The translations under genes and the position numbers were made by a program. DNA of 64,000 nt from an uncultured Candidatus Saccharibacteria bacterium (GTDB lineage: Bacteria; Patescibacteriota; WWE3; CAZQFB01). The notes under the pieces were generated by a model that was not told the origin of the DNA, searched no databases, and saw only the letters and a list, made by a program, of their open reading frames with translations. Position 1 is the stretch's first letter, and every line of letters starts with the position of its first letter. The stretch covers positions 212,413 through 276,412 of the forward strand of contig CAZQFB010000001.1 of the NCBI GenBank assembly GCA_964592525.1, given 5' to 3'. Shown here in pieces: positions 5,976 to 55,326 of the stretch.

Positions 5976-6338
5976 ATGAACTCATCTTTCATCTTAATCC
6001 TTATTAACATTCTCCTAGCGGTGTCGGGGCAAACTTTTATTAAACAAGGTGTAGCTAAAGTTGGTGATTATTCGACAATGCCGGTAGTGTTGTTTTTCCA
6101 ACAGGCGCTCCTTTCTCCTTTTGTGATTTTAGGTGTGCTCTTATATATTTTATCTTCTTTTGTGTGGTTTCTTGTTCTTTCCAAATTAGATCTTAGTATA
6201 GCTTATCCAGCGTTAAGCTTAGGTTATATCCTGGTTTTGGCGATTGGTGTTTTTTATCTTAACGAACCACTGACATTTTACAAATTACTTGGTGTTATAT
6301 TTATTTGTTTGGGTACTTTTCTCGTTTTCCATAAATAA
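5976..6338 (+). CDS. small 4-TM SMR/EamA-like membrane protein (candidate lipid-linked sugar flippase subunit, ArnE/ArnF-like)
   Basis: A 120 aa protein with four hydrophobic segments. Its size and topology resemble SMR-type ArnE/F or GtrA-like flippases, and it lies immediately downstream of the GT2 and FAD-enzyme genes. Confidence 0.45.
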   Translation: MNSSFILILINILLAVSGQTFIKQGVAKVGDYSTMPVVLFFQQALLSPFVILGVLLYILSSFVWFLVLSKLDLSIAYPALSLGYILVLAIGVFYLNEPLTFYKLLGVIFICLGTFLVFHK

Positions 6339-27926: not shown

Positions 27927-28913
27927 ATGATTGAGGATAGCCAACCAAGGGATAGTAGTAAGATTGATCTTTCTATTGTCATACCGCTTTACAACGAGGA
28001 GGAAAGTATTCCTTATCTCTATGAGGAAATTAAGGCGGTGATAGATAGTCAAAATTATAATGTTGAAGTGATAATTGTGGATGACGGGTCTTCGGATAAT
28101 TCTTTTGAAAAGCTAAGGAAAATTCATGACAAAGACAACAGGTTCAAAGTGATTTCTTTTAGAAGGAACTTTGGTCAAACTGCCGCCTTGCAAGCGGGTT
28201 TTGACAAAGCTAAAGGTGAGGTGATTGTTACCCTTGATGCTGATTTGGAGAATGATCCTAAAAACATACCAGATTTATTGGCTAAGTTAGATGAAGGTTA
28301 TGATATTGTTTCTGGCTTAAGAGCCGAACGATGGTCAGGTGGGTTGATGAGTTTAATCAAGAGGAAACTGCCTTCGGCTGCAGCAAACTATTTAATTTCT
28401 CGGACCTCACAAGTTCGTCTTCATGATACGGGTTGTACGCTGAAAGCTTATCGACGTGAGGTATTAAGTCAGATCAGGTTATATGGTGATTCTCACCGAT
28501 TTATCCCAGCAATGGCTAGTCAATATGGGGCTAGGGTTAGTGAGGTGGAAGTCAACTTCCGCCCCAGACGTTTTGGTACTTCCAAGTATGGGTTTTCTCG
28601 CACCATCAAAGTATTCTTAGACGTTATTCTGTTAAGGTTTATGTTAGAGTTTTCCACCCGACCGATGCAGTTTTTTGGGTTTTGGGGTTTACTCGCTGGT
28701 GGTTTGGGGTTTGTTTTTGGTTTGTATTTAACCCTTCTTAAGATCTTAGGTCATCAAAATATTGGTAGTCGACCACTTCTGCTCTTATCTGTACTCCTTC
28801 TTTTTCTGGGCGTTCAGTTGGTGATGATGGGACTTCTGGGTGAACTGCTCTCCCGCACCTACTTTGAATCACAAGGTAAAAAAACATACAGTATCAAAGA
28901 AGCCTTGCTTTAA
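27927..28913 (+). CDS. GT2 polyprenol-phosphate glycosyltransferase (ArnC/GtrB-like) with C-terminal double TM
   Basis: LSIVIPLYNEEESI...VIIVDDGSSDNS...RNFGQTAALQAGF...VTLDADLENDP, plus two C-terminal TM helices. This is a very typical ArnC/GtrB architecture. Confidence 0.8.
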   Translation: MIEDSQPRDSSKIDLSIVIPLYNEEESIPYLYEEIKAVIDSQNYNVEVIIVDDGSSDNSFEKLRKIHDKDNRFKVISFRRNFGQTAALQAGFDKAKGEVIVTLDADLENDPKNIPDLLAKLDEGYDIVSGLRAERWSGGLMSLIKRKLPSAAANYLISRTSQVRLHDTGCTLKAYRREVLSQIRLYGDSHRFIPAMASQYGARVSEVEVNFRPRRFGTSKYGFSRTIKVFLDVILLRFMLEFSTRPMQFFGFWGLLAGGLGFVFGLYLTLLKILGHQNIGSRPLLLLSVLLLFLGVQLVMMGLLGELLSRTYFESQGKKTYSIKEALL

Positions 28914-40026: not shown

Positions 40027-41241
40027 ATGCTACAATATCTGTGTATGACTACGCACAACATAGTATGCCTTTCGACCCAGCTTTGGGATGATCCCATGTG
40101 GACCAACAAACAGCACGTCATGAGCCGTTTGGCCAAAAGGGGTCATAAAATTATGTATGTTGATCCTCTCATCAGGATTAGGATGCTAGCCAGTAACATG
40201 GTCTTCAAAAGGAGATATTCTCCTAAAAGGCTTTTCACCTTTAAAAAAGAAGTAGAGAATAATCTCACAGTTTTATCTCCCGTGAAGTTTCTCTTTTCAA
40301 AAGAGAGGGAAAGAAGATTTAATTTGAAATTGATTAATAGAACAATCAGTCAGTCTGCAATCAATAAACCCATTCTCTGGGTTTATGATCCCGATTTTGC
40401 TGATTATGTGGAGCAGATACCCCATCAACTACTTATATATGATTGTGTGGATGATTACTCAAACATGCCCCAGGAACGTTACCCCGATAACAAAAAAGCA
40501 GAGATCATTGAAAAGGAGAAGAAGCTTATTAAAAGAGCAGATTTGGTTTTTGCCACTTCGCCTTTTCTTTATAAATTAAGAAAAGAGCAAAACCCAAATA
40601 CTTACTACACTCCCAATGTGGCGGATTTTGAGCATAACAGCCAAGCTCTTAAAGAAACGTTAGCCGTACCTGAAGAAATCAAAGATTTAGCCAAACCAAT
40701 CATAGGTTTTCAAGGTAATCTTTCTGCCTATAAATTTGATTTTGATTTGCTTGAAGCCGTTATCGCTAGTCACCCAGAATGGTCCTTTGTGTTTATTGGG
40801 CCGGTGGAAACCAGTAAAACCCTGACCGATACCTCTCGTAACACTCAAGTAGCTAAGCTGGAAAAACATGAAAACACACACTTTTTAGGTGTCCAACCTT
40901 ATGAACGATTACCCGCCTTTTACAAAGCTTTTGATGTCGCTATCATGCCCAATAAACAAAATGATTATAACCGCAGTTCATTTCCGCTTAAATTTTTTGA
41001 GTTTCTAGGAGCTGGTTTACCGGTGGTAATGACAAAATTACCTGCTTTGGCAGAATTTTATAATACTTCTGGAGTCTATGTTTCCGTTAGTGTGCAAGAT
41101 TTTATTAGGAACTTAGAGGAAGCTGTAACTAAAGGTCGCGCTTTTAGTCAAGAGGATAGATTGGTGCTCGCTAAACAGTACTCCTGGGAAAGTAAGATAG
41201 ATACTATGATAGCTTTGATTGAGGAAAGACTTAATAAATGA
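40027..41241 (+). CDS. GT-B fold glycosyltransferase (GT4-like)
   Basis: The C-terminal FFEFLGAGLPVVMTKLPALAEFY has a GT-B architecture. Confidence 0.5.
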   Translation: MLQYLCMTTHNIVCLSTQLWDDPMWTNKQHVMSRLAKRGHKIMYVDPLIRIRMLASNMVFKRRYSPKRLFTFKKEVENNLTVLSPVKFLFSKERERRFNLKLINRTISQSAINKPILWVYDPDFADYVEQIPHQLLIYDCVDDYSNMPQERYPDNKKAEIIEKEKKLIKRADLVFATSPFLYKLRKEQNPNTYYTPNVADFEHNSQALKETLAVPEEIKDLAKPIIGFQGNLSAYKFDFDLLEAVIASHPEWSFVFIGPVETSKTLTDTSRNTQVAKLEKHENTHFLGVQPYERLPAFYKAFDVAIMPNKQNDYNRSSFPLKFFEFLGAGLPVVMTKLPALAEFYNTSGVYVSVSVQDFIRNLEEAVTKGRAFSQEDRLVLAKQYSWESKIDTMIALIEERLNK

Positions 41242-42470
41242 TTTCGGATAAAGTTCAAAAAATACTGGTCATACTGCTTCTTGTTATTATGGGCGTGTAC
41301 TTGTGTTGGATGATTTTGGCTGGCTTTTTAAACCAGGGGGTGTCGGACTTTGCCACTTATTATCATGCTACAACTTTCGCACTGGCAGAGGATTGGAGGA
41401 ATCCTTACAGCAATCTTGCTCCTTTTCCTCCTTACTATTACCCACCACCGTCAATTCTGCTCTTTGCACCACTTACTTGGATGGATCGGACCATAGCTAA
41501 AACCGTTTTCTCCTCATTATCTGTGGTGGTCATGTTTTTATCGGTGTGGTTGATCATTAAGTTGAGAGGCGAGTCTCTAAGTGATCTACAAAAAACTATC
41601 TGTTACGCGATACCTGTCTTTTTCTACCCCTTCTGGTTTACTGTGGACGATGGTCAAGTAAACGCCTATCTCCTGTTATTGATCACCCTAACCTACTATT
41701 TTTATGAAAAAAATCGGGGGGTACTATCCGGGATGTTCCTTTCCCTTGCTATTCTTTTCAAAATAACCCCAGCGCTGATGGCTGTTTATTTATTGTTTAA
41801 GAAAAAGTACAAGATCATTTTGGTGGGTGGCTTGGTGTTTATTGTGCTGACTGTTGCCTCCGAGATGAGGTTGAAACCAGGGATAAATTGGATGTATTGG
41901 CGGTACATTGTTAATGATGTTTCGGCGCAAGGCGGTCCTGGTTATCGAGATCAGTCTCTTAATTCTTTTATTATGGAAACTGGGATAGTTGAATATCTCT
42001 GGGAAAATAAATTAAGGTATTTGTCTTTGCCCTCAAAAGTTGATGAACACGTGGTGACCAACCTGGTTAATTATGCCATTGTGGGGGTACTTTCACTATT
42101 TATATTTTTCAAATCTATTAAAGAGAAGGTGACCGAAACTTCAACTATTATTTATGAGTATTCCTTGCTGACTATTATTGCTGTAGTTGGGTCTGGGTTA
42201 ACCTGGTATCACCAATATACCATGCTCCTATTTCCATTTTTAATAGCGGTGATTGCAGTGATGAGAATGATCCCGTCCAAGAGACGCGTGATTTTAACTT
42301 TTATTCTTGCCGTGGCTTATGTCTTAATGGCAGTTAGTTTAGAAAGGCAAATCAATGTTGCTGATAGGTTGGTTGATTTTCAAAGGGGTGTGATGTTTTA
42401 TGGGGCTGTTTTAACGGCTTTAGTTCTGGGGTACTTTAGATATAGCCCTAGTTTTAAGGAGAGAAAATGA
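41238..42470 (+). CDS. DUF2029 / GT87-like membrane glycosyltransferase
   Basis: The N-terminus VSDFATYYHATTFALAEDWRNPY...YPPPSILLFAPL matches the DUF2029 DF-x2-YY...NPY...YPP pattern. The protein is polytopic. Confidence 0.5.
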   Translation: MISDKVQKILVILLLVIMGVYLCWMILAGFLNQGVSDFATYYHATTFALAEDWRNPYSNLAPFPPYYYPPPSILLFAPLTWMDRTIAKTVFSSLSVVVMFLSVWLIIKLRGESLSDLQKTICYAIPVFFYPFWFTVDDGQVNAYLLLLITLTYYFYEKNRGVLSGMFLSLAILFKITPALMAVYLLFKKKYKIILVGGLVFIVLTVASEMRLKPGINWMYWRYIVNDVSAQGGPGYRDQSLNSFIMETGIVEYLWENKLRYLSLPSKVDEHVVTNLVNYAIVGVLSLFIFFKSIKEKVTETSTIIYEYSLLTIIAVVGSGLTWYHQYTMLLFPFLIAVIAVMRMIPSKRRVILTFILAVAYVLMAVSLERQINVADRLVDFQRGVMFYGAVLTALVLGYFRYSPSFKERK

Positions 42471-43615
42471 AAATTGCTTATGTCCTTAATTCCGGTAACG
42501 TAGGAGGTGCCGAGAAACATGTTTTGGATTTAGTTGAGGGATTTAGTCATGATAATGAGGTAGTGGTGGTATGTCCTGAAGGGGAGATGGTTAATAAATA
42601 TAAACTGGCTGGGGCGGATGTTATCATTGACAAACCCTCTTTTGACATTGATATCTTCTATATTTTCAGACTGAAGAGGTTACTTGTATCCAGGTCAATA
42701 GATATTGCTCATCTACATCAGCTCAAGACAGTAATAAATGGGTTGATCTCGGCTAGTCTAGCTCAAACTAAGGTTAAGATTGCACATATCCACTCTCCCC
42801 TTTCTAAGTGGCAAATCCCTTTATATAAAAAGATATTGGATCTATTGATGAACTTCCTGGTGGTAAATCTGCTGGCGGATGTTGTGATAGCCCTTACCGA
42901 GGAAACAAAGCAGGAAAGGATGCGGGGTGAACATATTCGCGAAGATTTGATCAGAGTCATTCCCAACGGAGTGACAATTGAAAAGATAAAGCCTCAAGCG
43001 CACGATATGGAAGAGGCAGGAGTGTGGTTGAGAAAGAAGTACCAGCTAAATAAAGAGTATTTAGTTGGTACCTTAAGTAGATTAACGGAAGAGAAAGGGA
43101 CGGATGTATTCATAAAGGCTATTTCAAGAATGCCTGCTTTGGATGAGAATCTGTATCGAAATTGTCATTTTTTTATTGCTGGGGAGGGTCATTTACGGGG
43201 TGAGTTGGAGAAGTTGGTCAAATCAACAAACCTTGAAAGTATGGTGACTTTTCTTGGCTTTCTTTCAGAGGATGACCATGCAAAGTATTTTAAGTCCTTG
43301 AATCTTTTTGTTTTTCCTACTCTCCATGAGGGTTTTGGGCTTGTTTTAGCCGAAGCGATGGCTTATGGGGTGGCTACCCTTTCCTCGGATCTCCCTGTCC
43401 TTAAGGAAATTACCAACGCTGGTCGATTTGGCAAACACTTTGCGCGGGGCAGTGAGGATGATTTGGCAGAAAAGATGATTTCACAGCTTAAGGGTGAAGA
43501 AGGCGATAGCGCTACGATCCTAGCGGCTCAACAATGGATCAAGCAAAACTACTCCAAAGAACTTTTTATAAGTAGGTATAGGAAGTTATATCAGGAGGCA
43601 TTGGGTAATAAATGA
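42467..43615 (+). CDS. GT4 family glycosyltransferase
   Basis: FVFPTLHEGFGLVLAEAMAYGVATLSSDLP. Confidence 0.75.
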   Translation: MKIAYVLNSGNVGGAEKHVLDLVEGFSHDNEVVVVCPEGEMVNKYKLAGADVIIDKPSFDIDIFYIFRLKRLLVSRSIDIAHLHQLKTVINGLISASLAQTKVKIAHIHSPLSKWQIPLYKKILDLLMNFLVVNLLADVVIALTEETKQERMRGEHIREDLIRVIPNGVTIEKIKPQAHDMEEAGVWLRKKYQLNKEYLVGTLSRLTEEKGTDVFIKAISRMPALDENLYRNCHFFIAGEGHLRGELEKLVKSTNLESMVTFLGFLSEDDHAKYFKSLNLFVFPTLHEGFGLVLAEAMAYGVATLSSDLPVLKEITNAGRFGKHFARGSEDDLAEKMISQLKGEEGDSATILAAQQWIKQNYSKELFISRYRKLYQEALGNK

Positions 43616-44754
43616 AGGTAGTTATTCCACTTAGAGTGGATGCTTATGATAAGCCAGGTGGTGATGTAGTTCACGCGGAAAAGATCATGGCTTCTTTAAC
43701 GAAACTAGGTGTTGAGGTGGCCATGACTACTGACTTAAAGCCAGATTTATCTGGGGTAGATCTGGTCCATCTTTTTAACATGGATTGGGTTAGAGATCCC
43801 TTAATGCAAGCTAGACATGCCTATCGGTACCAGGTGCCAATTGTGCTCACCCCAATCCACCACTCCTTTAGGGAGATAGATGGCTTTGAAAGACAGGAGA
43901 GATATGGTTTGAGAAGGCTGACTAATATTGTCCTAAGGTCTTATGAACAACGTGAAACAGCCAAAAACATTTACCGTGCCTTTGTTGAGTTGGATCGGCG
44001 CAAATGGTGGGGTACTCTTGGTCTACTTAAGCAGGGTCTAACAGCACAATATCAGGAGCTGTTATCTCTAGCTACGGTTGTCATGCCTAATACCTATTTG
44101 GAGGAGGCAGAGCTGGAGCGGGAATTTGGGGTGGAGATGGAGACAGTAGTAGTACCGGCAGGAGTTGATCCAAACTTTTTAAACGCTACGGCTGATTGGT
44201 TAAACCACAATTATCCCGAGGTACTTGCTCGCTTGGGTTCTGATTTTGTGGCGATGGTGGGACGGATTGAACCGCGTAAAAATCAATTAAGAGTGATTGA
44301 AGCCTTAGCGGTGGCAAAGATACCCTTGTTACTAGTAGGCGATTTCAACCCCCATCATTTTGAATATAGTTGGCGAGTTCAGCAGGCGTTGTTAAAAAAT
44401 AAGCAAACAGTACATTTGGAGAGTATTCCTCATCAGCATATCGGTTCGGTTTATGCCTCCTGCAAAGTCCATCTGTTAGCTAGTTGGTTTGAAACGACTG
44501 GTTTAGTTAATTTAGAAGCGGCTTTGGCTGGGGCAACGGTGGTGTCCACAAACAAAGGTTTTGGTAAAGAGTATCTGGCACAGCAAGCAATTTTAGTTGA
44601 TCCTGCTAGGTCTGAATCTATTTTGTGTGGGGTTGAAAAAGGGTTACGGGAGGGGCGTAATGACAAATTGCAGGCGCATATTTTGCAAAATTACACTTGG
44701 GATATTGTGGGCGAACAAACTTTAGCGGTGTACCAAAAAGTATTAAAGAAGTAG
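43612..44754 (+). CDS. GT-B fold glycosyltransferase (GT4-like)
   Basis: ETTGLVNLEAALAGATVVSTNKGFGKEYL. Confidence 0.6.
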   Translation: MKVVIPLRVDAYDKPGGDVVHAEKIMASLTKLGVEVAMTTDLKPDLSGVDLVHLFNMDWVRDPLMQARHAYRYQVPIVLTPIHHSFREIDGFERQERYGLRRLTNIVLRSYEQRETAKNIYRAFVELDRRKWWGTLGLLKQGLTAQYQELLSLATVVMPNTYLEEAELEREFGVEMETVVVPAGVDPNFLNATADWLNHNYPEVLARLGSDFVAMVGRIEPRKNQLRVIEALAVAKIPLLLVGDFNPHHFEYSWRVQQALLKNKQTVHLESIPHQHIGSVYASCKVHLLASWFETTGLVNLEAALAGATVVSTNKGFGKEYLAQQAILVDPARSESILCGVEKGLREGRNDKLQAHILQNYTWDIVGEQTLAVYQKVLKK

Positions 44755-44765
44755 TATAAAGAATA

Positions 44766-47555
44766 ATGGAACTAGCCTTTTTAACCTTACTTTTTTGTTG
44801 CCTAGCACTATACATTACCTCTCGTGATCTCAAGTGGGGGTTAGTGTTATTGGTGCTAACTCTCCCCTTAAATAATCGCTTGATGTTTGATTTATTTATT
44901 TCTCAACAACTATTACCGGTTAGGTTAGTTTTGGTAGCTGTGCTGATAGTGCTGCTTAAGAACACATGGCTTGCATACCACCCATTCTCTGTGAAAGAAA
45001 GGTGGTCTTCTCTACTTAAAATGGGGCGACAAGACCCATTTCTATTTTTACTGATAAGTTTGTTGGGGGTGCGGGTTTTGTCTTTAATCAATGTGATTAA
45101 CTTTAAATTTTCTTTAACCTTTATGGTTTTTTATCTGGCGATGATTGGCATGTATTTGGTGATGAAGTATGTTTATGCTCGTGAGGGGCGCGAATTTTTC
45201 TACCAACTTTTCCAACTTCATGCTGGGGTGGTGGTAGCTACGAGTTTGTTTAGTGTGGTGCAATTTTTCTTTTTTAAAGGTATTGGTAGAGTGTTGCCGG
45301 GAGTCTGGCCTTCCACCACCGAACCGACTAGGTTTGGGTCAACTTTTTGGGATATTAATCACTATGCTCCCTATGTAGGTAGTGTGATTCCTTATTTCTT
45401 GATAAGGCTGATTGCTGCTAAGACTAATAAGGAACGAGTATTATTTGGTTTTTGTTTTGGGCTGACTAATATCAGCTTGCTGATGACGTTGTCTCGAAGT
45501 GGTTGGTTAGGTTATGCTTTTGGGCTCGGTGTCTTTGGTTTGTTGCTGATAATCAGAAAGATGTGGCGTGGTTTTTCTTGGTATTTAGCTGCCATGATAT
45601 TGATTATGCTAGCCGCTTTAGCAGGGGATATGTACTTCAACCATCCGATCTCAAGAAGGATAAAATCCTTAGGTACTAATGTTTACAACGAATCTTTTAA
45701 TGCGCACCAAATTCTGAATAAAGGTCATTTTGAGTTGTTCTCTAGACATCCGGTGATTGGTTCTGGGTATGGTAACTTTAGTGACCAGTTTAGAACTACC
45801 CCACATGCGGCTAAATATTTTGAGATTGATCCGGTTGCAGAAGTGCGTTTGCCTTCTCATAGTGTCTGGTTAGAAATAATGTCTGAAACAGGGATGCTGG
45901 GATTAACCACATTTTTGGTCTTAGTGGCTTATGTTTTTAGACGGTTATTTTTAGCGATGAACACTAGTGAAGAGAAGTGGCGCTATCTAGGTGTAGCGCT
46001 GTTTGCCTCAATTGCTGGCATGTTATTTTCTTCTCTTTTTTACCACTATAACCTGGAGTATTTCTGGCTGATAATTTTCCTAGCGGTCTTTGTGGCGCGC
46101 AGTGTGTTGCCCACCGAACAGTATCAACCTCAAGATTACTTGGTCACCTTTTTACTGGTTGGTTTAGCCACTGCCATGATTTTTCCACAGCTGGGTAAGA
46201 ACGCTCTTATTGACTGGGATGAATCCATTTATGCACAAGTCGCCAAAAATATTGCTCGCTTTCGTGATCCGATCACCCTGCGTTGGCATTTAGAGAAATA
46301 TTGGTTTGAAAAGCCTCCGCTCTATTTTTGGTTCACAGCAGCGCTTTACTTGGTTCATGAGGTGTCTGAATTTTCAGCTCGCTTTTGGTCCGCACTGTCT
46401 GGTGTTTTGGGGGTAGTGCTCGTCTATTTTTTTGGTCGTGACTTAGCAGGTAGAGCTGTTGGGTTGGCTTCGGCACTGACCTTGCTCTCTACTGTTCATT
46501 GGTTGTTCCAGTCAAGAAATGGCACTTTAGATGTGATGGCAGCAACTTGTATAGTGGCCACACTTTGGTTGTTTTACCGAGCACGGACGCGGTTGAGGGA
46601 CTGGTGGTTGGTGGGAGTTGGTTTGGGTCTGACCTTGATGGTTAAAGGAGCCGTGGCAGCGGTTCCTTTATTGATTATGGTTATATTTGGGGGATATGAA
46701 TATTTTCTGCAGCAGAAAAAAAATTACTACCCCTGCCGACAGCTTTTTGTAAGAATACTGGTGCCTTTCAGTGTGCTTGTCTTACCCTGGCATATCGCTG
46801 TTATCTGGCTTCATGGTCGGCAATTTATTGATTCGTACTTTTTTTATCATGTTCTGCAACGATCAACCACTGGTATTGAGCAACATGGTCATTCTTTTTT
46901 CTGGTATTTGATTGTCATTAAAGTGTGGGCTAGACATAATTTTGTACTGCTGCTTGGCTCTTTAGCCTTACTGTTTACAAGTTGGCTGAAAAAAAGGCGC
47001 CGTGGTCTAAAAGCAAATACGCCAGAAGTGTTTTTGATTTTATATTTACTAGTAGCGTGGCTGATATTTTCCCTTTCGGCTTCAAAGATTCAGTGGTACA
47101 TTATGCCCTTGTATCCAGCGATGTCTTTAATTGTGGGTTATAGTTTGGTAATACTGTTTAGGTGGTTACCTTTGAAAAGGTTTATACCCATATTATTAAT
47201 GGTCTTGACTTTAAGTGTGCCTTTTTTTAAAGATCGTTATCAGTCACTATGGAATCTGGAAGATGCTTGGCGAGGCGTTGCCGAAGTTGTGCCTCATCTT
47301 AAGTATGAAGCGCGAAAAGTCTCCTCGCCGCGACTGTTAATAATTGATATGTCTCCAGGTCCGGCAATGTTTTACAGCCCCCATCCAACGGAAACAGGTA
47401 ACTTTTCAACGTTGGTTAAAGCGGCGGAAAGTGAGAACTCTTTCTTTGCCGTTGCTAGAGTAGGGCAAGCCGAAGATCTGATAAAGCTTTATCCGGAAAG
47501 GAAGGTTAAAATATATAAACAGTCTGAAGATTTTGCGCTGCTGGGTAGATGGTAA
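44766..47555 (+). CDS. fusion protein: N-terminal O-antigen ligase/polymerase-like (Wzy_C) domain + C-terminal PMT/ArnT-like GT-C domain
   Basis: The 929 aa protein has a first half containing LMTLSRSGWLGYAFGLGVFGLLL (Wzy_C/O-antigen ligase motif) and a long periplasmic loop. The second half contains IDWDESIYAQVAKNI...FEKPPLYFWF (DE motif plus KPPL, the ArnT/PMT signature). Confidence 0.55.
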   Translation: MELAFLTLLFCCLALYITSRDLKWGLVLLVLTLPLNNRLMFDLFISQQLLPVRLVLVAVLIVLLKNTWLAYHPFSVKERWSSLLKMGRQDPFLFLLISLLGVRVLSLINVINFKFSLTFMVFYLAMIGMYLVMKYVYAREGREFFYQLFQLHAGVVVATSLFSVVQFFFFKGIGRVLPGVWPSTTEPTRFGSTFWDINHYAPYVGSVIPYFLIRLIAAKTNKERVLFGFCFGLTNISLLMTLSRSGWLGYAFGLGVFGLLLIIRKMWRGFSWYLAAMILIMLAALAGDMYFNHPISRRIKSLGTNVYNESFNAHQILNKGHFELFSRHPVIGSGYGNFSDQFRTTPHAAKYFEIDPVAEVRLPSHSVWLEIMSETGMLGLTTFLVLVAYVFRRLFLAMNTSEEKWRYLGVALFASIAGMLFSSLFYHYNLEYFWLIIFLAVFVARSVLPTEQYQPQDYLVTFLLVGLATAMIFPQLGKNALIDWDESIYAQVAKNIARFRDPITLRWHLEKYWFEKPPLYFWFTAALYLVHEVSEFSARFWSALSGVLGVVLVYFFGRDLAGRAVGLASALTLLSTVHWLFQSRNGTLDVMAATCIVATLWLFYRARTRLRDWWLVGVGLGLTLMVKGAVAAVPLLIMVIFGGYEYFLQQKKNYYPCRQLFVRILVPFSVLVLPWHIAVIWLHGRQFIDSYFFYHVLQRSTTGIEQHGHSFFWYLIVIKVWARHNFVLLLGSLALLFTSWLKKRRRGLKANTPEVFLILYLLVAWLIFSLSASKIQWYIMPLYPAMSLIVGYSLVILFRWLPLKRFIPILLMVLTLSVPFFKDRYQSLWNLEDAWRGVAEVVPHLKYEARKVSSPRLLIIDMSPGPAMFYSPHPTETGNFSTLVKAAESENSFFAVARVGQAEDLIKLYPERKVKIYKQSEDFALLGRW

Positions 47556-47588: not shown

Positions 47589-48467
47589 ATGAAATTAAGT
47601 ATTATCACAGTTACCTACAACGTAGAAAGTGTGCTTGACGGTTATCTTAAATCGCTGGAGCAGAGTGAAGTCGGCTTAGGTCTATTGGCGGGGGAAGTGC
47701 TTGTAGTGGATAATGCCTCCGAGGATAATACGGTTGCACAGCTTAAAAAGTCTGCTGTACCGATAAAGATAATATGTTCAAAAGAAAATTTGGGTTTTTC
47801 CGCCGCTAATAATTTAGGGTTAAAAGAAGCTTGTGGCGAAAACCTCCTTTTCTTGAATCCAGATACGGAGTTTAAAGCAGGGGTGCTCACTACTCTCCTT
47901 GAGTACCTTGATGCTCACGAAGAGGTGGGTGCTGTTACACCACGAGTTTTGCTCCCCGATGGTCAAGATGACTTAAATACGCGTCGTAATTTTCCTACCC
48001 CCCTGTCAGCCCTTCAGCACTTTTTACATTTACCAGGCAGTGATTACTACATCACTAAAGAGCCAACACAAGAACAAGCGGTACCAGCTATTGGGGGTGC
48101 TTTTTTAATGGCTAAACAAGCGGTGGTGACAAAAGTTGGCTCCTGGGATGAGGATTTTTTCCTGTACGGAGAGGATTTGGATTATTGTTATCGTATCAAT
48201 GAAGCGGGTTATAAAATTATGTATGTACCTGCAGTGCAAATAACCCATTTGGGTGGGGTTAGTACGGGGATCAAAAAGAGTGGGGAGCGTTGGTCAAAAG
48301 CAAGCAAAAAACAAAAAAGAGCGATGGCTAAGTACTCTGTGGAGGCAATGGCGCTTTTTTACCAAAAACATCTAGCTAATAAACACAACTTGATCATCAA
48401 TGCTTTAGTGGCGTTTGGTTTTCGCGTTCTGTGTATGGTGCGTGTTCTTCAATTTTCTCTGAAGTGA
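47589..48467 (+). CDS. GT2 family glycosyltransferase (rhamnosyltransferase-like)
   Basis: LSIITVTYNVE...LVVDNASEDNT...FLNPDTEF...GGAFLMAK. Confidence 0.7.
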   Translation: MKLSIITVTYNVESVLDGYLKSLEQSEVGLGLLAGEVLVVDNASEDNTVAQLKKSAVPIKIICSKENLGFSAANNLGLKEACGENLLFLNPDTEFKAGVLTTLLEYLDAHEEVGAVTPRVLLPDGQDDLNTRRNFPTPLSALQHFLHLPGSDYYITKEPTQEQAVPAIGGAFLMAKQAVVTKVGSWDEDFFLYGEDLDYCYRINEAGYKIMYVPAVQITHLGGVSTGIKKSGERWSKASKKQKRAMAKYSVEAMALFYQKHLANKHNLIINALVAFGFRVLCMVRVLQFSLK

Positions 48468-48678
48468 ACCAGACAAAATTACTACTACTTGAGGAAAAGC
48501 ATCCTCTCTCTAGTGTCGCTTCTGTTAGCGCGTATGGGGATTTTGGTAAGGTTAGAGCTCGGGTGCGCAAGTAATATTTGCGTCGGGGTGTTTAGCTAGG
48601 CTGCTAAGCCAAGACAGCTCTTGTACGGTGAGGTTATGCAACTGCTTAAACAAATGTGTCATGTAAGTATGACAGCTA

Positions 48679-49821
48679 ATGTCTTATAATAACCCCATGA
48701 AGATTGCGATTGATGCTAGGTTCTGGGGACCTCGCCAGACCGGTTTGGGTCGTTATACGGAAAATCTGGTTCGGGCGCTTGCCAAACTGAAAAGCGACCA
48801 CCAATTTACTCTTTTTGTAGAACAGGACACCTTGGCTGAAATAACAGCTTTACCAGCTAACTTTCAGTTAGCCAAACTGACAGTTAAGCACCATACCGCT
48901 AGGGAGCAATTAAGTGTTTCGATGGCGATTAATCAGGGTCACTATGATCTAGTACACTTTCCTCATTATATTGTGCCTTTGCTTAACCTCCGCACTCCCT
49001 TTGTAATTACGATGCATGATCTAATTAAATTGAAATATCCCGGTTCAGCAGCTACCACCTTACCACCTTTAATGTACCACCTTAAAAATGTTTTTTATCG
49101 TTTGGATAACTGGTGGGCAGTCAACCATAGCCAGCATATCATTACTGATACCCAAGTAGTTAAAAATGATTTAATCTCTTTTTTCTCCATACCCCCCGAA
49201 AAAATCACCCCAATCCCCCTTGGCATTGATGATAGTATTAAATTATCTACTGCCAGGGAGGTTGTTTTGGCTAAATATGCTCTGCACGCGAAAAAGTATT
49301 TGTTATTTGTGGGTAATGCCTATCCTTATAAAAATGTGGAGACCTTGATTTTGGCTGTTAAAAACTGCCCCGCTGATTTAGAACTAGTGTTAGTGGGGGC
49401 GAGAGATAGTTTTCAAGAACGTTTGTCTGTTTTAGCTAAGGAAACTGGGGTAAGTCATAAGGTTAAACAGCTTGGTTTTGTTAGTGATGGGGAGCTGGCG
49501 GTTTTGTATTCAGCTGCTTATGCCTATGTCTCTTTAAGTTTGGAAGAAGGGTTTGGTCTACAACCTTTAGAAGCTATGCTTCATGGTTGTCCCGTAATTT
49601 TATCTGATATTCCGGTATACCGGGAAGTTTGTGGCGAGGCAGCACTTTATGCACCCCCACAAAACGCACGCGCTTTTTTAGTACAAGTGCAAATCTTAGC
49701 TGATCCCGCGGTCAGAAAAAAACTAATCACTAAAGGGGCTGAACAAGTGAAGCAGTACCGCTGGAGCAAAACCGCAGCGGCGACTTTAGCTGTTTATAAC
49801 GACATTCTGCAATGCGTATAG
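48679..49821 (+). CDS. GT4 family glycosyltransferase
   Basis: EEGFGLQPLEAMLHGCPVILSDIPVYREV. The probable true start is the ATG at 48697. Confidence 0.75.
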   Translation: MSYNNPMKIAIDARFWGPRQTGLGRYTENLVRALAKLKSDHQFTLFVEQDTLAEITALPANFQLAKLTVKHHTAREQLSVSMAINQGHYDLVHFPHYIVPLLNLRTPFVITMHDLIKLKYPGSAATTLPPLMYHLKNVFYRLDNWWAVNHSQHIITDTQVVKNDLISFFSIPPEKITPIPLGIDDSIKLSTAREVVLAKYALHAKKYLLFVGNAYPYKNVETLILAVKNCPADLELVLVGARDSFQERLSVLAKETGVSHKVKQLGFVSDGELAVLYSAAYAYVSLSLEEGFGLQPLEAMLHGCPVILSDIPVYREVCGEAALYAPPQNARAFLVQVQILADPAVRKKLITKGAEQVKQYRWSKTAAATLAVYNDILQCV

Positions 49822-50897
49822 CTATTGTCCATGATGATTTTGTGCAGTGGGGTGGTGCGGAGCGTTTAGTTAAAGCTTGGGCTGAAGTATGGCCCCAAGC
49901 CGATATCTATACCGTCCAGTATGCACCTTTAGTAGGTGAGCTTAGCTGGTTGCAGCAACGTCGGTTGGTAGCTAGTTTTGTTCAACGTATTCCAGGCCAC
50001 ATTAAGTTGTATAAAACTTTGTTTTGGCTATACCCTTTGGCGGTAGAAAGCTTTGATCTTCGTGGTTATGATGTGGTGCTATCTTCGTCAGCACGTTTTG
50101 CCCATGGCGTGATAACTGCACCAGAAACCTTACATATTGCCTATATCAATTCTCCTCCCCGCATGCTTTGGGAGGAGTACTCCTACTTTGCGCATTCCTG
50201 GTTAAGACTGGGGTTAGCCCCACTGTTACACCTACTTAGATTGTGGGATTTTGTGGCTGGGCAAAGACCAGACTGGTTAATTGCTAATTCTCATTATGTG
50301 GCAGCTAAAATTGAGAAGCGCTACCATCGCCAAGTTACTAAAGTTATTCATCCTTTTACAGAAATTGCTCAATTGTATGAGTCTACAGAGCCTTGTAGAG
50401 AGGAAGTTGGCTTTTTAGTGGTCTCCCGTTTATTAGCTTGGAAACAATTAGCTCTGGTGATAAAAGTCTTTAATGATTTAGGGCTACCGTTGACTATTAT
50501 TGGGCAAGGTCCCGATTATCATCGGTTGCATAAATTAGCTGGTCCCACCATAAATTTCAAACAAGGTTTGACAGACGAAGAAGTGGCTAGCTATTATCTT
50601 AAGAGTATCGCTTTGCTCCATCCGCAGGAGGAGGATTTTGGCTTGACGCCACTGGAGGCTATGGCTCTGGGTAAGGGCGTGATAGCGTACCAAGCCGGAG
50701 GCGCTTTGGAAACAGTGGTCGCTGGTGTTACGGGGGAGTTTTTTAAGCCTCAAACAGCAGCCGCCTTAAAGAAAGTGATACTGGCTTATCAACCGCAAAA
50801 ATATCACCCGGAGACTTGTCGGGCGGTGGCAAGAAAGTTTAGCAAGGATAAATTTATATTAGCATTTCAGGAGTTGCTTAAAGGAAAAAATACGTGA
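49812..50897 (+). CDS. GT-B fold glycosyltransferase (GT4-like)
   Basis: EEDFGLTPLEAMALGKGVIAYQAGGALETV. Confidence 0.65.
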   Translation: MRIAIVHDDFVQWGGAERLVKAWAEVWPQADIYTVQYAPLVGELSWLQQRRLVASFVQRIPGHIKLYKTLFWLYPLAVESFDLRGYDVVLSSSARFAHGVITAPETLHIAYINSPPRMLWEEYSYFAHSWLRLGLAPLLHLLRLWDFVAGQRPDWLIANSHYVAAKIEKRYHRQVTKVIHPFTEIAQLYESTEPCREEVGFLVVSRLLAWKQLALVIKVFNDLGLPLTIIGQGPDYHRLHKLAGPTINFKQGLTDEEVASYYLKSIALLHPQEEDFGLTPLEAMALGKGVIAYQAGGALETVVAGVTGEFFKPQTAAALKKVILAYQPQKYHPETCRAVARKFSKDKFILAFQELLKGKNT

Positions 50898-51523
50898 GTT
50901 ATCAAACACAAAAGCGAATTGTAGATTTAGTGGGCGGTTTTTTTGGTGTGCTTCTTTTTTCTCCCCTGCTGCTATTTTTAGCAGTTTACATATTTATGGT
51001 CTCTCCTGGTCCGGTATTAGCAGATACACCCAAAAGGGTAGGTAAAAACAACCGTCTTTTTCGGATGTACAAGTTTAGAACGATGATTCTGAATGCCCAT
51101 CAATATTTACTTGAACACCCTGATTTATATGAAGAATACAAAAATAATGATTACAAATTAGATAACGATCCACGCTGGATTCCGGGAGCACAGGTTATTA
51201 GAAAGTTCAGCCTTGATGAGTTCCCGCAGTTTTTTAATGTGCTAAAAGGAGAAATGAGTTTGGTGGGACCACGGGCTTACTACCCGTTTGAACTTAAGAG
51301 TCAGCAAGAAGTCTACCCGGAAGCAAGTCCTTATATTAAAAAACTGCTGCAAAGCAAACCAGGTTTAACTGGTCCGTGGCAAGTGGGTGGTAGGTCCGAA
51401 TTAAATTTTGTAGAGAGAGTGAAGCTAGATGCTACTTATGCTGATAATCAGTCTATCTGGTATGATCTGCAAATTATCTTTAAAACGCCTTTAGCAGTAA
51501 TCAGTGGAAAAGGAGCTTTGTGA
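50894..51523 (+). CDS. initiating sugar-phosphate transferase (bacterial sugar transferase family, PglC/WbaP C-terminal-domain type)
   Basis: One N-terminal TM segment, then MYKFRTM...DEFPQFFNVLKGEMSLVGPR, the classical Bac_transf motifs. Confidence 0.8.
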   Translation: MSYQTQKRIVDLVGGFFGVLLFSPLLLFLAVYIFMVSPGPVLADTPKRVGKNNRLFRMYKFRTMILNAHQYLLEHPDLYEEYKNNDYKLDNDPRWIPGAQVIRKFSLDEFPQFFNVLKGEMSLVGPRAYYPFELKSQQEVYPEASPYIKKLLQSKPGLTGPWQVGGRSELNFVERVKLDATYADNQSIWYDLQIIFKTPLAVISGKGAL

Positions 51524-53394
51524 AGAAAAGAAAGTATTATGCTCCTTCCCACATTGGTAAACTGGCTTGGCGGCGGAATTCGCGCCAGCCTAAATTTTCC
51601 CCCGCTAAATTTTTAACCCGGAAGAGAAAAACGATCATTGCTGTATTAACCCTAGTATTAGTGATTAGTTATTTTGCCTTGTTAAGACCTGTGGTGGTAG
51701 CTTACGCGACGGCGTCTAGTTTTAAAAAGAGTGCTCATAAGATAGCTGAAGAAATGAGGGAGCAAGATTTTGAAGCAATCTTGAAGGAGCTAGGCAAGAT
51801 GGAAAAAAAGATGGTTAAGCTTAATGATGTGGTGGGTCAATACCAGTATCTCTCTTTTATTCCCGGTACTGCAGTTTATTTTAAGGACTCGGAACATTTA
51901 ACGACAGCAGGGGTTCATGGCTTAAAGGCTTTAAGGATTGGCTTTGAAGCCTTAGAGCCGTATAAAGAAATTTTGGGGTTTAAGGATGATGTTGGTAGTA
52001 ATAAAGAACAGGACGTAAATAAATTAGTGGCAGCGGTAAACGTGTTACCGAAACTTGAGCCCCGCTATGACGAAATTGCGGTGGAAGTACATGCTGTTAG
52101 GTTGGCCTTAGATCAGGTAAAGCCAGCTGACTACCCCCAGCAACTAAAGGGTATTAAGGTCCAAGAGCAGCTATATTTTGCGCAAGAAATGTTACATCGT
52201 TTTGATGATGGTGCGCCCACAATTAAAGCATTCTTATCTAAACTACCTTCGGTTATGGGTGATCCGGCGTTTGGGGATAAGAAATATTTGATTTTAATGC
52301 AAAACGACAAAGAGCTTAGGGCTTCAGGAGGTTTTTTGACTTCTTATGCCATATTAACCTTGCGTGAGGGTAGTGTGGCTGATGTTGTGGCTGCCGATAC
52401 TTATGATTTAGATCAGCGGATCGGTTTGGTAACCGAACCCCACCCGGTGTTATCAAAATATCTGCAATTAGACCACTGGTTTGCCCGAGATGCTAACTTT
52501 TCCCCTGATTATGTGGAATCAGCCAAAACATTTTATGAGTTTTGGCAGATGGTGCCAAATGAAAATATTGACGGTATCTTTGCCATTGACACTGAAGTAC
52601 CGGCTGGGTTTTTGGAAGTGTTAGGCCCTGTCACTATTGAAGGCTATGAGGAGAAGTTTGATAGTGGAAATATTATTGAATTAATGAGTGACCAGGCTCG
52701 TGAATTGAGGGAGCATCGTGATCGTAAAGCCCTTATTGGGTTGTTGTTAGCTTCTTTGGAAAGCAAGGTTTTTGATGCTCCCCAAGAGCAATGGGCGCCT
52801 TTGTTTAAAAAGGTGCTGGAATTGCTATATGAAAAACATTTGTTACTCTATGCATTTGATCCGGAAGTGCAGAGTTTTTTTGAGGCCTTTAATTTTGCTG
52901 GTCGGGTAGTTGAATACCCCAACGATTATCTCTATGTTAATGACACAAATTTAGCTGGTGGTAAAGCCAACTTTTATATTGAGCAAACTATTACTAAAGA
53001 GGTGTACCCAGAGGGTGATAGCCTGGTATCAAGGGTTGCTGTAAAGTACCACAACCAGGGTGAGTATGAAGCGGAGATTAACCCGGGGTATCAGAGTTAC
53101 GTGCGGGTCCATGTGCCTCTGGGTTCAGAGTTGCTGGCTTCTTCAGGCTCCCTGGAGGCGGTCAAAACCGATACTGATTTAGGTAAAACTGTCTTTATCG
53201 CTCTTAATTTAACTCCGCCCAAGGAAGAGTCAGAATTAATATTCCGTTATAAATTACCTTCTCACCTCACTTTGGCTAATTATTCACTCTTGCTGCAAAA
53301 ACAGCCGGGTAAACCAAATGATCCTTATCGCGTGGTGGTTGGTGATTTTGTTGAGGAATTTGAGTTACGAACTGATAAGGAAATCAAGCTCTAG
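51520..53394 (+). CDS. large secreted/anchored protein, DUF4012-like
   Basis: The 624 aa protein has an N-terminal TM anchor and is hydrophilic thereafter. The DUF4012 assignment rests only on size, topology and location after the initiating transferase; no motif was matched. Confidence 0.3.
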   Translation: MKKRKYYAPSHIGKLAWRRNSRQPKFSPAKFLTRKRKTIIAVLTLVLVISYFALLRPVVVAYATASSFKKSAHKIAEEMREQDFEAILKELGKMEKKMVKLNDVVGQYQYLSFIPGTAVYFKDSEHLTTAGVHGLKALRIGFEALEPYKEILGFKDDVGSNKEQDVNKLVAAVNVLPKLEPRYDEIAVEVHAVRLALDQVKPADYPQQLKGIKVQEQLYFAQEMLHRFDDGAPTIKAFLSKLPSVMGDPAFGDKKYLILMQNDKELRASGGFLTSYAILTLREGSVADVVAADTYDLDQRIGLVTEPHPVLSKYLQLDHWFARDANFSPDYVESAKTFYEFWQMVPNENIDGIFAIDTEVPAGFLEVLGPVTIEGYEEKFDSGNIIELMSDQARELREHRDRKALIGLLLASLESKVFDAPQEQWAPLFKKVLELLYEKHLLLYAFDPEVQSFFEAFNFAGRVVEYPNDYLYVNDTNLAGGKANFYIEQTITKEVYPEGDSLVSRVAVKYHNQGEYEAEINPGYQSYVRVHVPLGSELLASSGSLEAVKTDTDLGKTVFIALNLTPPKEESELIFRYKLPSHLTLANYSLLLQKQPGKPNDPYRVVVGDFVEEFELRTDKEIKL

Positions 53395-54158
53395 TGTCCA
53401 CTATCAGAATTGAGGGGGTGGTGGTTAAAGTACGGAAATATGGAGAGAAAGATCGCCTGCTCACCATTTTTACCAGGGAACGGGGGAAAATTACAGCTTT
53501 AGCAAAAGGTTCTCGTTCTTTATGTAGCAAACGTTCACCTCATCTTGATTTGTTGTGCCACAATGAATTTATTTTAGCTACTGGATATGCTTGGGACATA
53601 GTGTTGGATACTTTTCCCATCCCCGGTAAGCGCCGAGATACGCCAACTCTTTCCCACATCGCGCAACTGTATTATTCAGGTGAGTTACTGGATTTATTTT
53701 TAGCGGATAAGCAAGCTAATGCTTTAATTTACGATGCTTTGGTAAACTTTCTCAATTCGCTAGTGAGATACCCAAGCCATGGGAATTTGTATACACAATT
53801 TCTCCTTCGTTATCAGTTGGCGGTACTAGAAGCGAGTGGTTTTAGTCCAGAGCTCCATAAATGTTTAGTATGCCAGCAACCCCTTTCTCCCACGACAGTC
53901 TATTTTAGCCCCCAAAAAGGTGGGGTGATATGTGCATCTTGTGCCGGTCAGGTACTAGATTCAGTTGTGATGAGTTTAGAGGCGCTTAAAGTAATGCGCT
54001 TTCTCAAAAAAGCGAGTGATGATGAAATAGCTTTATTGCTATTGCGACAGAAATTGCTGGCCGAGGTTCAAACGCAACTTAATCGGCATATTGAGTGGGT
54101 GGGCGAACGAAAAATGAGGACAACTTCACTATTTAATGAACTTAATAAGTTTAGCTAA
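53394..54158 (+). CDS. recO: DNA repair protein RecO
   Basis: The N-terminal OB fold is IEGVVVKVRKYGEKDRLLTIFTRERGKITALAKGSRS. A C-terminal Cys4 zinc finger is present (CLVCQQ...CASC). Confidence 0.75.
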   Translation: MSTIRIEGVVVKVRKYGEKDRLLTIFTRERGKITALAKGSRSLCSKRSPHLDLLCHNEFILATGYAWDIVLDTFPIPGKRRDTPTLSHIAQLYYSGELLDLFLADKQANALIYDALVNFLNSLVRYPSHGNLYTQFLLRYQLAVLEASGFSPELHKCLVCQQPLSPTTVYFSPQKGGVICASCAGQVLDSVVMSLEALKVMRFLKKASDDEIALLLLRQKLLAEVQTQLNRHIEWVGERKMRTTSLFNELNKFS

Positions 54159-54312
54159 CGTTAGGGATATGAGAAGTTGCGACCAACGGGAGCAATTTGG
54201 GTGGAGAAGTCTGCAAGACTTCGTAACCTCATATCCCTTGTTATATTCCCCGAAGGGCTGAAATTTAGTGCAACGTCCCGAAGGGAAATTTCAGAGTTGC
54301 TCGGCGGCGGCG
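54158..54312. repeat. repeat element A (imperfect palindrome GGGATATGAG...CTCATATCCC, a duplicated CCCGAAGGG motif and the IR arm ttgctcggcggc)
   Basis: The inverted-repeat arms lie at 54158-54167 and 54208-54217. A CTAACGTTAG palindrome overlaps the recO stop. ttgctcggcggc at 54297-54308 is the reverse complement of 55152-55163. Confidence 0.5.
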
Positions 54313-55300: not shown

Positions 55301-55326
55301 TCATACACACTGTTATCGGATGTAAT

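Follow-up and report, generated by a model that had tools for sequence, protein, structure and literature searches.

Patescibacteria (CPR) make up a large share of bacterial diversity, and to our knowledge nothing has been established by experiment on the glycans of their surface, through which they probably attach to host cells; WWE3, one of their groups, consists of ultra-small, uncultured bacteria. A gene at 44766..47555 of a 64-kb window from a WWE3 genome (64,000 nucleotides, the whole stretch of DNA that was analysed; this and all further features lie on the + strand) raises the question of whether two membrane glycosyltransferases of different types are joined in one polypeptide, and what such a pair would do. 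The gene encodes a bimodular GT-C protein of 929 aa, composed of a WaaL-like module, an ArnT-like module and a small C-terminal soluble domain, of which the existing annotation, 'glycosyltransferase family 39 protein', covers just one half. A literature search on the fusion of Wzy_C with PMT_2, on CPR O-antigen ligases and on WWE3 glycosyltransferases found no description of the fusion.

The preliminary description had claimed a single 929 aa ORF, and this is borne out by the ORF list and the translation, which runs uninterrupted from an ATG start with zero internal stops. The remaining two frames across the gene hold 85 and 67 stops, the junction at ~46.09-46.15 kb contains neither N bases nor a homopolymer, and GC3 is alike in both halves (0.42 vs 0.41). 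Relatives are encoded in at least 117 GTDB species representatives, nearly all of them WWE3/Patescibacteria, and the same fusion, for which the preliminary description had proposed a search in related genomes, is present there: one stop-free ORF holds both halves in 71/80 retrieved loci (species-level, with closed and curated genomes among them), and relatives at 42-53% identity likewise have a single ORF. A merger of neighbouring genes by frameshift or mis-assembly would find support in the nearest-neighbour clade of the window protein, where the two modules are separate genes, adjacent and overlapping or abutting; this split form was found repeatedly in independent samples, and its gene junctions match the junction position of the fusion exactly. 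Against such an artefact stand the continuous ORF, the clean junction, the stop-rich alternative frames and above all the single ORF kept in 71 of the 80 independent genomes, which makes a frameshift untenable, and the chance of an artefact is regarded as negligible. The fusion of a WaaL-type with an ArnT-type module is genuine, and the coexistence of fused and split forms is a Rosetta-stone pattern.

Both domain families named in the preliminary description score above GA in Pfam, with Wzy_C (PF04932) at aa 233-384 in the first half (E 2.1e-14, 54 bits vs GA 31.7), and PMT_2 (PF13231) at aa 516-668 (E 3e-19, 70.2 bits vs GA 26.1) and PMT (PF02366) at aa 510-677 (E 3.2e-11, 43.7 bits vs GA 22.7) in the second. 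The matches are unchanged when the halves are scanned separately, and the Wzy_C annotation is also carried by 16/16 homologs. The motifs quoted for the two halves are likewise in place, the Wzy_C-type loop SRSGWLGYAFGLG at aa 243-255, DE as D485-E486 in DWDES, and KPPL as aa 516-519 in WFEKPPLY. None of the NCBIfam ligase and ArnT models attains its cut-off against the fusion. In an alignment of 68 fusions (68 species, 29-53% overall identity), from which all residue counts below are taken, the putative catalytic residues hardly vary in either half.

The N module (aa 1-447, 44766..46106) has a multi-TM GT-C(B) fold, in which a large extracytoplasmic loop, predicted at aa ~291-366, precedes the final three TM helices. 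In WaaL, the catalytic His (E. coli H338 / C. metallidurans H313) activates the acceptor, whereas inverting Wzy families use Asp/Glu, and two Args, Cm R191 / Ec R215 and Cm R265 / Ec R288, bind the Und-PP phosphates (PMC10920833). When aligned to WaaL by hhalign (E 8e-4, probability 24%), H365 of the motif H365-S-x9-G376-x-x-G379 (45858..45902) falls on Ec H338, E370 on E343 and G376 on G349, and would thus represent the catalytic His and the following E...G; H365, G376 and G379 are kept in 68/68 and E370 in 65/68. R244 in the MTLSRS motif (45495..45497; 67/68) pairs, in this low-probability alignment, with Ec R215, the first phosphate-binding Arg. At the second, R288, the same low-confidence alignment places H314 (45705..45707; 68/68), with S310 on Ec S284. 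Both the His at this position and the low confidence of the match count against the WaaL-like reading. Another invariant Arg, R189, could take the place of the second WaaL Arg; it opens the loop motif R189-G-S-x-F-W-D196-x-N198-H199 (45330..45362), which is predicted to be extracytoplasmic, may have a functional role, and keeps R189, D196, N198 and H199 in 68/68 each. Since the profile of the N half gave zero matches to PDB sequences even at E <= 10, the link to WaaL rests on the fold and on the weak hhalign match.

The C module (aa 459-825, 46140..47240) has the GT-C(A) fold of an ArnT-like membrane glycosyltransferase. In the alignment to 5ezm, D485-E486-S-I-Y489 (46218..46232), in the predicted first extracytoplasmic loop, corresponds to ArnT D55-E56...Y59; at the position of the RYA motif the window protein reads S-I-Y489-A, with the Tyr invariant and the Arg absent (D485 and Y489 in 68/68, E486 in 67/68). 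The stretch W513-F-E515-K516-P-P518 (46302..46319) corresponds to the YFEKP motif with E84 and K85 (E515, K516 and P517 in 68/68 each), and within 46530..47102 the residues D589, K627, R699 and Y778 correspond to D158, K203, R270 and Y345, Y778 being kept in 67/68 and the other three in 68/68. Functional roles have been reported for the loop-1 RYA motif and the YFEKP motif of ArnT (PMC5377068; for YFEKP also PMC7443731), and K85, R270 and Y345 are located at the Und-P phosphate site (PMC7443731). The functional set aligned to ArnT, D485, E486, E515, K516, R699 and Y778, which includes the counterparts of the acidic catalytic residues of loop 1, is kept in 67-68/68. As the score against the NCBIfam ArnT equivalog NF009784 (71.7 bits) lies far under the cut-off of 567, the C module is a homolog of ArnT, not an ortholog. 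In Pfam, no MIR family was found in the fusion at E <= 1, so the combination of PF02366 with luminal MIR that marks a PMT is not present, and no PMT chain was found in PDB by sequence profile. A recent origin of the C module by copying from any of the 10 PMT_2 paralogs in the window was ruled out, as identity is at most 27% and FEKPP occurs in none of them.

The C-terminal alpha/beta soluble domain (aa 826-929, 47241..47552; predicted secondary structure, pLDDT ~88-93) is presumably extracytoplasmic, as in ArnT, and is the most divergent part between homologs, with many tblastn matches ending near aa 791. The two modules are joined by a short linker (aa 448-458, 46107..46139), predicted to be cytoplasmic, whose conservation is low (mean column majority 0.34 vs 0.56-0.58 in the two modules). 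The linker region of the 68 fusions measures 19-41 aa, that of the window being the shortest, and is net basic (KR 3.7 vs DE 1.75). From the helices of the predicted model, the positive-inside rule and homology, Kyte-Doolittle TM calls being too noisy, both catalytic loops are predicted to lie on the outer side of the cell membrane.

It might be supposed that one module is a dead scaffold, for example the ArnT-like domain as a membrane partner or substrate platform, leaving a single activity. Nothing specific speaks for this, other than that H314 in place of the second WaaL Arg is readable as a degenerate ligase site. All checked ArnT residues and the WaaL Arg/His pair are invariant in 68 species at 29-53% identity, and the N and C halves evolve at similar rates, both of which argue against a scaffold and make it very improbable. 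The co-divergence of the halves reaches r = 0.91, the same being expected of any two co-inherited genes.

Around the gene lies a conserved glycan locus of the Wzx-dependent kind, with GT4s, Wzx, Bac_transf and DUF4012. The co-directional upstream block (40027..44754) carries, according to Pfam, GT4 genes at 40027-41241, 42467-43615 and 43612-44754, and a GT87 gene at 41238-42470; in WWE3, all three GT4s share synteny with the fusion (54-62/71 loci), and the GT87 was not seen at fusion loci of WWE3. In the downstream block (47589..53394), Pfam and NCBIfam identify a GT2 (47589-48467), two GT4s (48679-49821 and 49812-50897), a Bac_transf, that is, a small polyprenyl-P sugar-1-P transferase (PGT, 50894-51523), and DUF4012 (51520-53394), which in the synteny analysis follows the PGT in every case. 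A Wzx homolog was not found in the 64-kb window; with the PGT and GTs in the window, and Wzx as a direct neighbour of the fusion elsewhere in WWE3, the locus is of the Wzx/Wzy type.

We lean towards the explanation that the protein is a bimodular glycosyltransferase, the two active modules of which act consecutively on the same glycoconjugate, probably in the last extracytoplasmic steps of surface glycan assembly in WWE3/Patescibacteria. An oligosaccharide would be built on Und-PP in the cytoplasm, primed by Bac_transf and extended by the neighbouring GT4/GT2 enzymes, and would be flipped outward by a Wzx-type flippase. The N module, more as a ligase than as a polymerase, would then transfer the Und-PP-linked oligosaccharide en bloc to an acceptor hydroxyl, and the C module would draw on a polyprenyl-monophosphate-sugar donor to transfer one sugar, the short cytoplasmic linker joining the membrane bundles such that both catalytic loops lie outside. 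The ArnT-like module may add the sugar that serves as acceptor for the ligase module, comparable to GT25 in WadA, or it may decorate the glycan newly attached by the ligase module. The earlier interpretation, in which one polypeptide ligates or polymerises a glycan and decorates it, is supported, with donor classes and a coupling of the two reactions that we infer. A more specific form is put forward only tentatively, namely a composite extracytoplasmic two-donor ligase, made either as one chain or as two translationally coupled ones, in which the acceptor would be passed directly between the lipid-P-monosaccharide and lipid-PP-oligosaccharide sites.

The N module could also be the polymerase of the pathway, since most loci have no Wzy_C protein besides the fusion and no Wzz or LCP was recognisable in the locus. 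As a Wzy-type polymerase it would join Und-PP repeats, while the C module would add a side-branch sugar to each unit during chain growth, as Gtr-type GT-C enzymes decorate O-antigen, and another protein, possibly DUF4012, would attach the product. Pfam Wzy_C includes polymerases and ligases alike, and a second Wzy_C gene in nine loci suggests that polymerase and ligase roles are separable. In a fold comparison, DUF4012 weakly matched YvhJ, an LCP-family protein of B. subtilis (3nxh, E 0.02, TM 0.52 on target), which would release the N module from a ligase role; sequence comparison gave no support for DUF4012 acting as an LCP ligase or as a co-polymerase of the Wzz kind. Taken together, polymerisation with decoration is considered a rather unlikely possibility.

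With regard to the acceptor, which may be a lipid, a wall polymer or a protein, the lipid A-core used by WaaL is not to be assumed for the N module; no LPS genes were noted in the 64-kb window, and we know of no LPS production in the host lineage. The target might instead be a surface protein (S-layer, pilin), with the N module as an O-oligosaccharyltransferase of the PglL/PilO/WsaB type and the C module as a PMT-like enzyme, a sugar on Ser/Thr being followed by the en bloc oligosaccharide, or two kinds of site being served on one substrate; such protein O-glycosylation is judged improbable.

For the supply of polyprenyl-P-sugar to GT-C enzymes, the window holds candidate genes. An ArnC/GtrB/PgfS-like GT2 (27927..28913; NCBIfam NF007986 220 bits over full length, below the cut-off of 529; PgfS 171 bits) is a candidate synthase for GT-C enzymes including the C module, and an ArnF/ArnE-like small SMR protein (5976..6338; NCBIfam ArnF 57 bits against a cut-off of 99, ArnE 33 bits; Pfam EamA) is a candidate flippase subunit. 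They lie 17-40 kb from the fusion, outside the conserved locus, and the 10 other GT-C enzymes of the window could be their clients. Both points speak against the explanation favoured above, as do the absence of a Wzx homolog from the window and the NCBIfam scores below cut-off. The adjacent GT2 (47589-48467) was rejected as the synthase for the C module, as it resembles rhamnosyl/EPS GT2s and occurs in 14/71 loci.

WWE3 has a core glycan locus with the fusion gene at its conserved centre; as the sole Wzy_C-type enzyme there in most genomes, the protein offers an obvious handle on the identity of the glycan and on attachment. Two GT-C structural classes, the users of lipid-PP-oligosaccharides and of lipid-P-monosaccharides, are here covalently paired in a natural protein, and the coexisting fused and split forms provide a ready test of whether such enzymes form physical complexes. 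If true, the composite two-donor ligase would be of an undescribed type, defining a signature envelope glycan of WWE3/Patescibacteria, and would be the first case of a natural GT-C(A)-GT-C(B) pair demonstrated to function as a unit.

Among known systems, GtrA/GtrB/GtrC-type and S. mutans Pgf systems employ a GT2 to make a polyprenyl-P-sugar, a small flippase to export it and a GT-C to place the sugar on an envelope glycoconjugate. The window likewise has GtrB/ArnC/PgfS-like and ArnE/F-like genes; in the known systems the GT-C stands alone, whereas here it is fused to an Und-PP-glycan transferase, with the synthase and flippase candidates outside the conserved locus. The His pair that we take to form the Zn site of ArnT aligns inexactly with the C module. 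In ArnT (CAZy GT83; 5EZM/5F15) the motif is RYA, in the C module IYA, and the C-terminal domain is shorter here; unlike ArnT, the C module is placed downstream of a ligase-like module and fused to it. The N module has marginal sequence similarity to WaaL (CAZy GT121; 7TPG/7TPJ), differing from it in the additional invariant motifs R189...D196-x-N-H199 and FYSYN, in being joined to another enzyme, and probably at the second Arg position, where the low-confidence alignment puts His314.

The closest precedent for the fusion itself is WadA of Brucella/Mesorhizobium, a bimodular O-antigen ligase of GT25 and GT121 (PMC9938171, PMC10920833), and the idea of a bifunctional ligase, for which WadA has been the only known precedent to date, is here extended. 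In both, an O-antigen-ligase-type membrane module is covalently fused to a second glycosyltransferase, here probably one of the same pathway as it is in WadA, and the fused enzyme of WadA, which produces the acceptor sugar for the ligase, offers a logic for the fusion here. Neither a GT25 nor any other soluble GT domain was found in the fusion by Pfam, and the likeness to WadA is one of logic only. The partner in WadA is a soluble cytoplasmic GT-A-like GT25, N-terminal and using a nucleotide-sugar donor, so that the active sites lie on opposite sides of the membrane, whereas the partner here is a C-terminal integral-membrane GT-C, which would use a lipid-P-sugar donor, and both sites are predicted to lie outside.

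The ORF at 44766..47555 (+), which begins with ATG and runs for 929 codons with no internal stop in the ORF listing and translation, encodes a protein with a WaaL-like N module (aa 1-447) and an ArnT-like C module (aa 459-825). The preliminary description had proposed, from the sequence alone, that a Wzy_C domain is fused here to an ArnT/PMT-like GT-C domain, and each motif that it quoted is present in the translation, the Wzy_C-type loop SRSGWLGYAFGLG at aa 243-255, DE as D485-E486 inside DWDES, and KPPL from K516 inside WFEKPPLY. The domain assignment holds as well, with Wzy_C (PF04932, aa 233-384, 54 bits), PMT_2 (PF13231, aa 516-668, 70 bits) and PMT (PF02366, aa 510-677, 44 bits) all over the Pfam gathering score, and matches are unchanged when the halves are scanned separately. 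In NCBIfam, aa 463-795 resemble ArnT and aa 91-422 resemble IctB/Wzy_C, with scores well short of the equivalog cut-offs in either case. The protein is not an ArnT ortholog by this score, nor, with no MIR match in its Pfam scan, a canonical PMT.

The fusion is genuine, and the chance that it is an artefact is negligible. The junction DNA (~46.09-46.15 kb) contains neither homopolymers nor ambiguous bases, 85 and 67 stops interrupt the remaining two frames of the gene, and the halves have equal GC3. Searched by word index, 5.8 billion proteins yielded 16 full-length homologs of 917-1033 aa with 30-53% identity, from NCBI, JGI, ENA and Logan assemblies, all 16 with both Pfam domains; where a name is given it is 'glycosyltransferase family 39 protein', and the source is Patescibacteria or WWE3. 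Both domains are thus already tagged on homologs in public databases, under names that describe the GT39 half only. When 1.84 billion 50%-cluster representatives were searched exhaustively with HMMER, 259 matched at E <= 1e-30, about 50 of them covering both halves in one aligned stretch, and a scan of one genome per species found relatives in at least 117 GTDB species. The best 80 loci of this set, which include the closed genome CP006914 and one curated complete genome, belong nearly all to candidate division WWE3 or to MAGs labelled generically as Patescibacteria or 'Saccharibacteria'. In 71 of these 80 species-level loci the best matches of the two halves share one stop-free ORF, so the same fusion occurs in related genomes; most of the exceptions are cut by contig ends. 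Two retrieved loci are labelled 'Gammaproteobacteria' (L011) and 'Woesearchaeota archaeon' (L027), with a fusion and neighbours of typical WWE3 type, and their labels probably reflect mis-binning or mislabelling.

Split forms also exist. Used alone as query, the N half recovered four separate Wzy_C proteins of 411-452 aa (405-436 bits), and in all three contigs fetched a PMT_2 gene (483-496 aa) follows directly, in surroundings of GT4 and GT2-GT4-GT4 genes as around the fusion. The genes are separated by an in-frame gap of 9 nt in locus L082, by an ATGA-type stop/start overlap in L083/L084, where the DNA of an NCBI MAG and that of a JGI sample are identical, and by an overlap of 29 nt in L085/L086, with 99.96% identity across two samples; a diverged GTDB MAG (L074) has an overlapping junction of the last type. 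Recovery of these junctions across samples and in L074 indicates a maintained gene structure with no sequencing error. A distance tree gathers the split forms into a single clade, the one closest to the window protein (42-43% identity). One chain versus a translationally coupled pair is the classical Rosetta-stone pattern, and the occurrence of the modules as one or the other argues for joint working. Pairwise distances of the two halves are correlated (r = 0.91, Mantel 0/999), as those of any two co-inherited genes would be, and show no sign of domain swapping; evolutionary rates are similar between the halves.

The 16-sequence alignment gave an AlphaFold2 model (mean pLDDT 81, pTM 0.84) that matches ArnT (E 3.6e-12) and WaaL (E 4.8e-5, TM 0.64 on target) in Foldseek. 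By sequence profile, the sole PDB match is ArnT 5ezm (E 1.1e-40, query 463-802), the N half having none. In the model, the N module resembles WaaL in having a large loop (aa ~291-366) ahead of three TM helices; a short linker comes next, leading to the ArnT-like module with its first helix and a loop that bears DWDE and FEKPP. The linker region measures 19-41 aa in the 68 fusions, where it is net basic and poorly conserved, and the positive-inside rule predicts it to be cytoplasmic. Since this fits the C-terminus-in of WaaL and the N-terminus-in of ArnT, the catalytic loops of both modules are predicted to face outward.

The two-module GT-C protein is conserved with both catalytic residue sets intact, and a version in which one module is dead is very improbable. 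Among 68 aligned full-length fusions (the window protein and 67 species), the N module retains R189, D196, N198, H199, T241, S310, H314, P363, H365, G376, G379 and Y426 in 68/68; R244 (67/68) and E370 (65/68) are near-invariant, and in the motif G332-x-G334-Y-G336 the three Gly are present in 68/68 and Y335 in 63/68. In the C module, D485, Y489, E515, K516, P517, D589, K627, H676, R699, R723 and K774 occur in 68/68 and E486, H695 and Y778 in 67/68, and D483, the first D of 'DWDE', is variable (Pro in 52 of 68). In the HMMER alignment with the ArnT of C. metallidurans (chain index = native + 3), D485, E515, K516, D589, K627, R699 and Y778 are equivalent to D55, E84, K85, D158, K203, R270 and Y345. 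Functional weight is documented for the ArnT loop-1 RYA and YFEKP motifs and loop-2 Arg (PMC5377068), and for K85, R270 and Y345 at the Und-P phosphate site (PMC7443731).

The N module is a divergent WaaL relative rather than a demonstrable GT121 member. Aligned with E. coli K-12 WaaL by hhalign, it scores weakly as a whole (E 8e-4, probability 24%), yet the alignment is anchored on known motifs (R244/R215, H365/H338, E370/E343, G376/G349) and places invariant H314 on WaaL R288; the K-12 Wzy polymerase WbbH (E 0.15) and WzyE (E 0.35) give no meaningful alignment with the N-half profile. WaaL binds Und-PP phosphates by two Args and activates the acceptor by His, and inverting Wzy families of the same clan have Asp or Glu in place of this His (PMC10920833). 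Given correct alignment, the N module differs from WaaL in having His at the second Arg position. As His365 is invariant, the chemistry of the N module tilts toward that of a ligase/O-oligosaccharyltransferase.

The fusion lies in a co-directional glycan locus, preceded by GT4 genes at 40027, 42467 and, immediately before it, 43612, and followed by GT2 (47589), GT4 (48679 and 49812) and a small Bac_transf polyprenyl-P sugar-1-P transferase (PGT, 50894), then DUF4012 (51520-53394) and RecO. In dozens of WWE3 species the order is GT4-GT4-GT4-fusion-(variable segment)-GT4-(GT4)-GT4-Bac_transf-DUF4012-RecO. A GT87 membrane mannosyltransferase-like gene (41238-42470) separates two GT4 genes that directly neighbour each other in syntenic WWE3 loci, and looks like a lineage-specific addition. 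A Wzx-type flippase (PF01943) lies inside the variable segment in 8 of 10 loci sampled and adjoins the fusion, on either strand, in the majority of WWE3 genomes (for example L009, L014, L025, L044, L007, L030 and L003), so the pathway is Wzx-dependent, with the fusion usually its only Wzy_C protein. No Wzx homolog is detectable across the 64-kb window, which has a single MOP-family flippase, the MurJ-like gene at 22463. A second Wzy_C gene (~740 aa) occurs in nine loci (L004, L005, L006, L022, L027, L031, L037, L058 and L079), directly downstream of the fusion in one subclade (e.g. L004:11044-13269) in which the fusions are also longer (1013-1043 aa) and additional PMT_2 genes lie upstream.

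On balance, we lean to a candidate two-module enzyme combining WaaL-like en bloc ligation with ArnT-like single-sugar addition on the same glycoconjugate. An oligosaccharide would be assembled on Und-PP by the PGT and the GT4/GT2 enzymes and flipped by Wzx; the WaaL-like module would transfer it en bloc to an acceptor hydroxyl, and the ArnT-like module would add one sugar from a polyprenyl-P-sugar, either as the acceptor for the ligase module (cf. the GT25 of WadA) or as a decoration of the product. The main rival, in which the N module acts as the pathway polymerase, with a side branch attached by the C module in the course of chain growth, is somewhat unlikely; in its favour, most loci are without another Wzy_C gene, and, more weakly, the DUF4012 protein, conserved directly 3' of the priming transferase across WWE3 loci, has a weak Foldseek match (E 0.02, TM 0.52 on target) to the LCP-family protein YvhJ of B. 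subtilis (3nxh). The DUF4012 model (AF2, pLDDT 85) comprises an N-terminal TM anchor, long helices, a beta-sandwich and an alpha/beta domain in which QND-E-R-GGF, R-D-x-N and D motifs are invariant, and its sequence finds neither Pfam LCP or Wzz support nor a PDB match. A version with protein O-glycosylation is improbable.

Outside the locus, the window encodes candidate genes for supplying donors to GT-C enzymes. An ArnC/GtrB/PgfS-like GT2 (27927-28913; 220 bits over full length, NCBIfam), two AglJ/DPM1-like GT2s (21756-22460 and 3784-4533) and an ArnF/ArnE-like small SMR protein (5976-6338) putatively form a tool-kit for polyprenyl-P-sugar synthesis and flipping that serves GT-C enzymes. Ten more PMT_2-type GT-C genes occupy 23 kb (window 15595-38187), at 15595, 17122, 18779, 24535(-), 26242, 28919, 30541(-), 33355, 34946 and 36595, interspersed with GT2s and the MurJ-like flippase; sharing <=27% identity with the C module and FEKPP in none, they are a striking local expansion of lipid-P-sugar-dependent transferases. 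A DUF2079 membrane protein (2091-3737, minus strand), an LA_3751/3752-like putative glycosyltransferase (20304-21731) and an LPG_synthase_TM protein (8438-9421) are predicted to be further membrane glycan or lipid enzymes, and envelope-glycan-like genes make up well over half of the window ORFs. GC falls to 0.35 at 54-56 kb; genes in this region (54000-56733) encode an MBL-fold hydrolase (-), a CPT/zeta-toxin-like kinase (-) and, at 55885-56733, a tyrosine recombinase of XerC/D type. The start of the dcw cluster follows at 58378-63237 (MraZ, MraW/RsmH, FtsL-like protein, class B PBP, Mur ligase), indicating that the organism makes peptidoglycan, a possible acceptor of the glycan; the host lineage is not known to make lipid A.

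No description of a Wzy_C/ArnT-like fusion was found in the literature searched. Among documented proteins, WadA (GT25 + GT121) comes nearest; a 2023 paper introduced it as the first O-antigen ligase with two functions (PMC9938171), and it is the only bimodular entry listed in PMC10920833. In WadA, the GT25 module creates the acceptor sugar for the ligase module. The two proteins share a logic but not their parts: in the window protein the partner is a membrane GT-C that would use lipid-P-sugar, both sites are predicted to lie on one face of the membrane, and the protein occurs in Patescibacteria.
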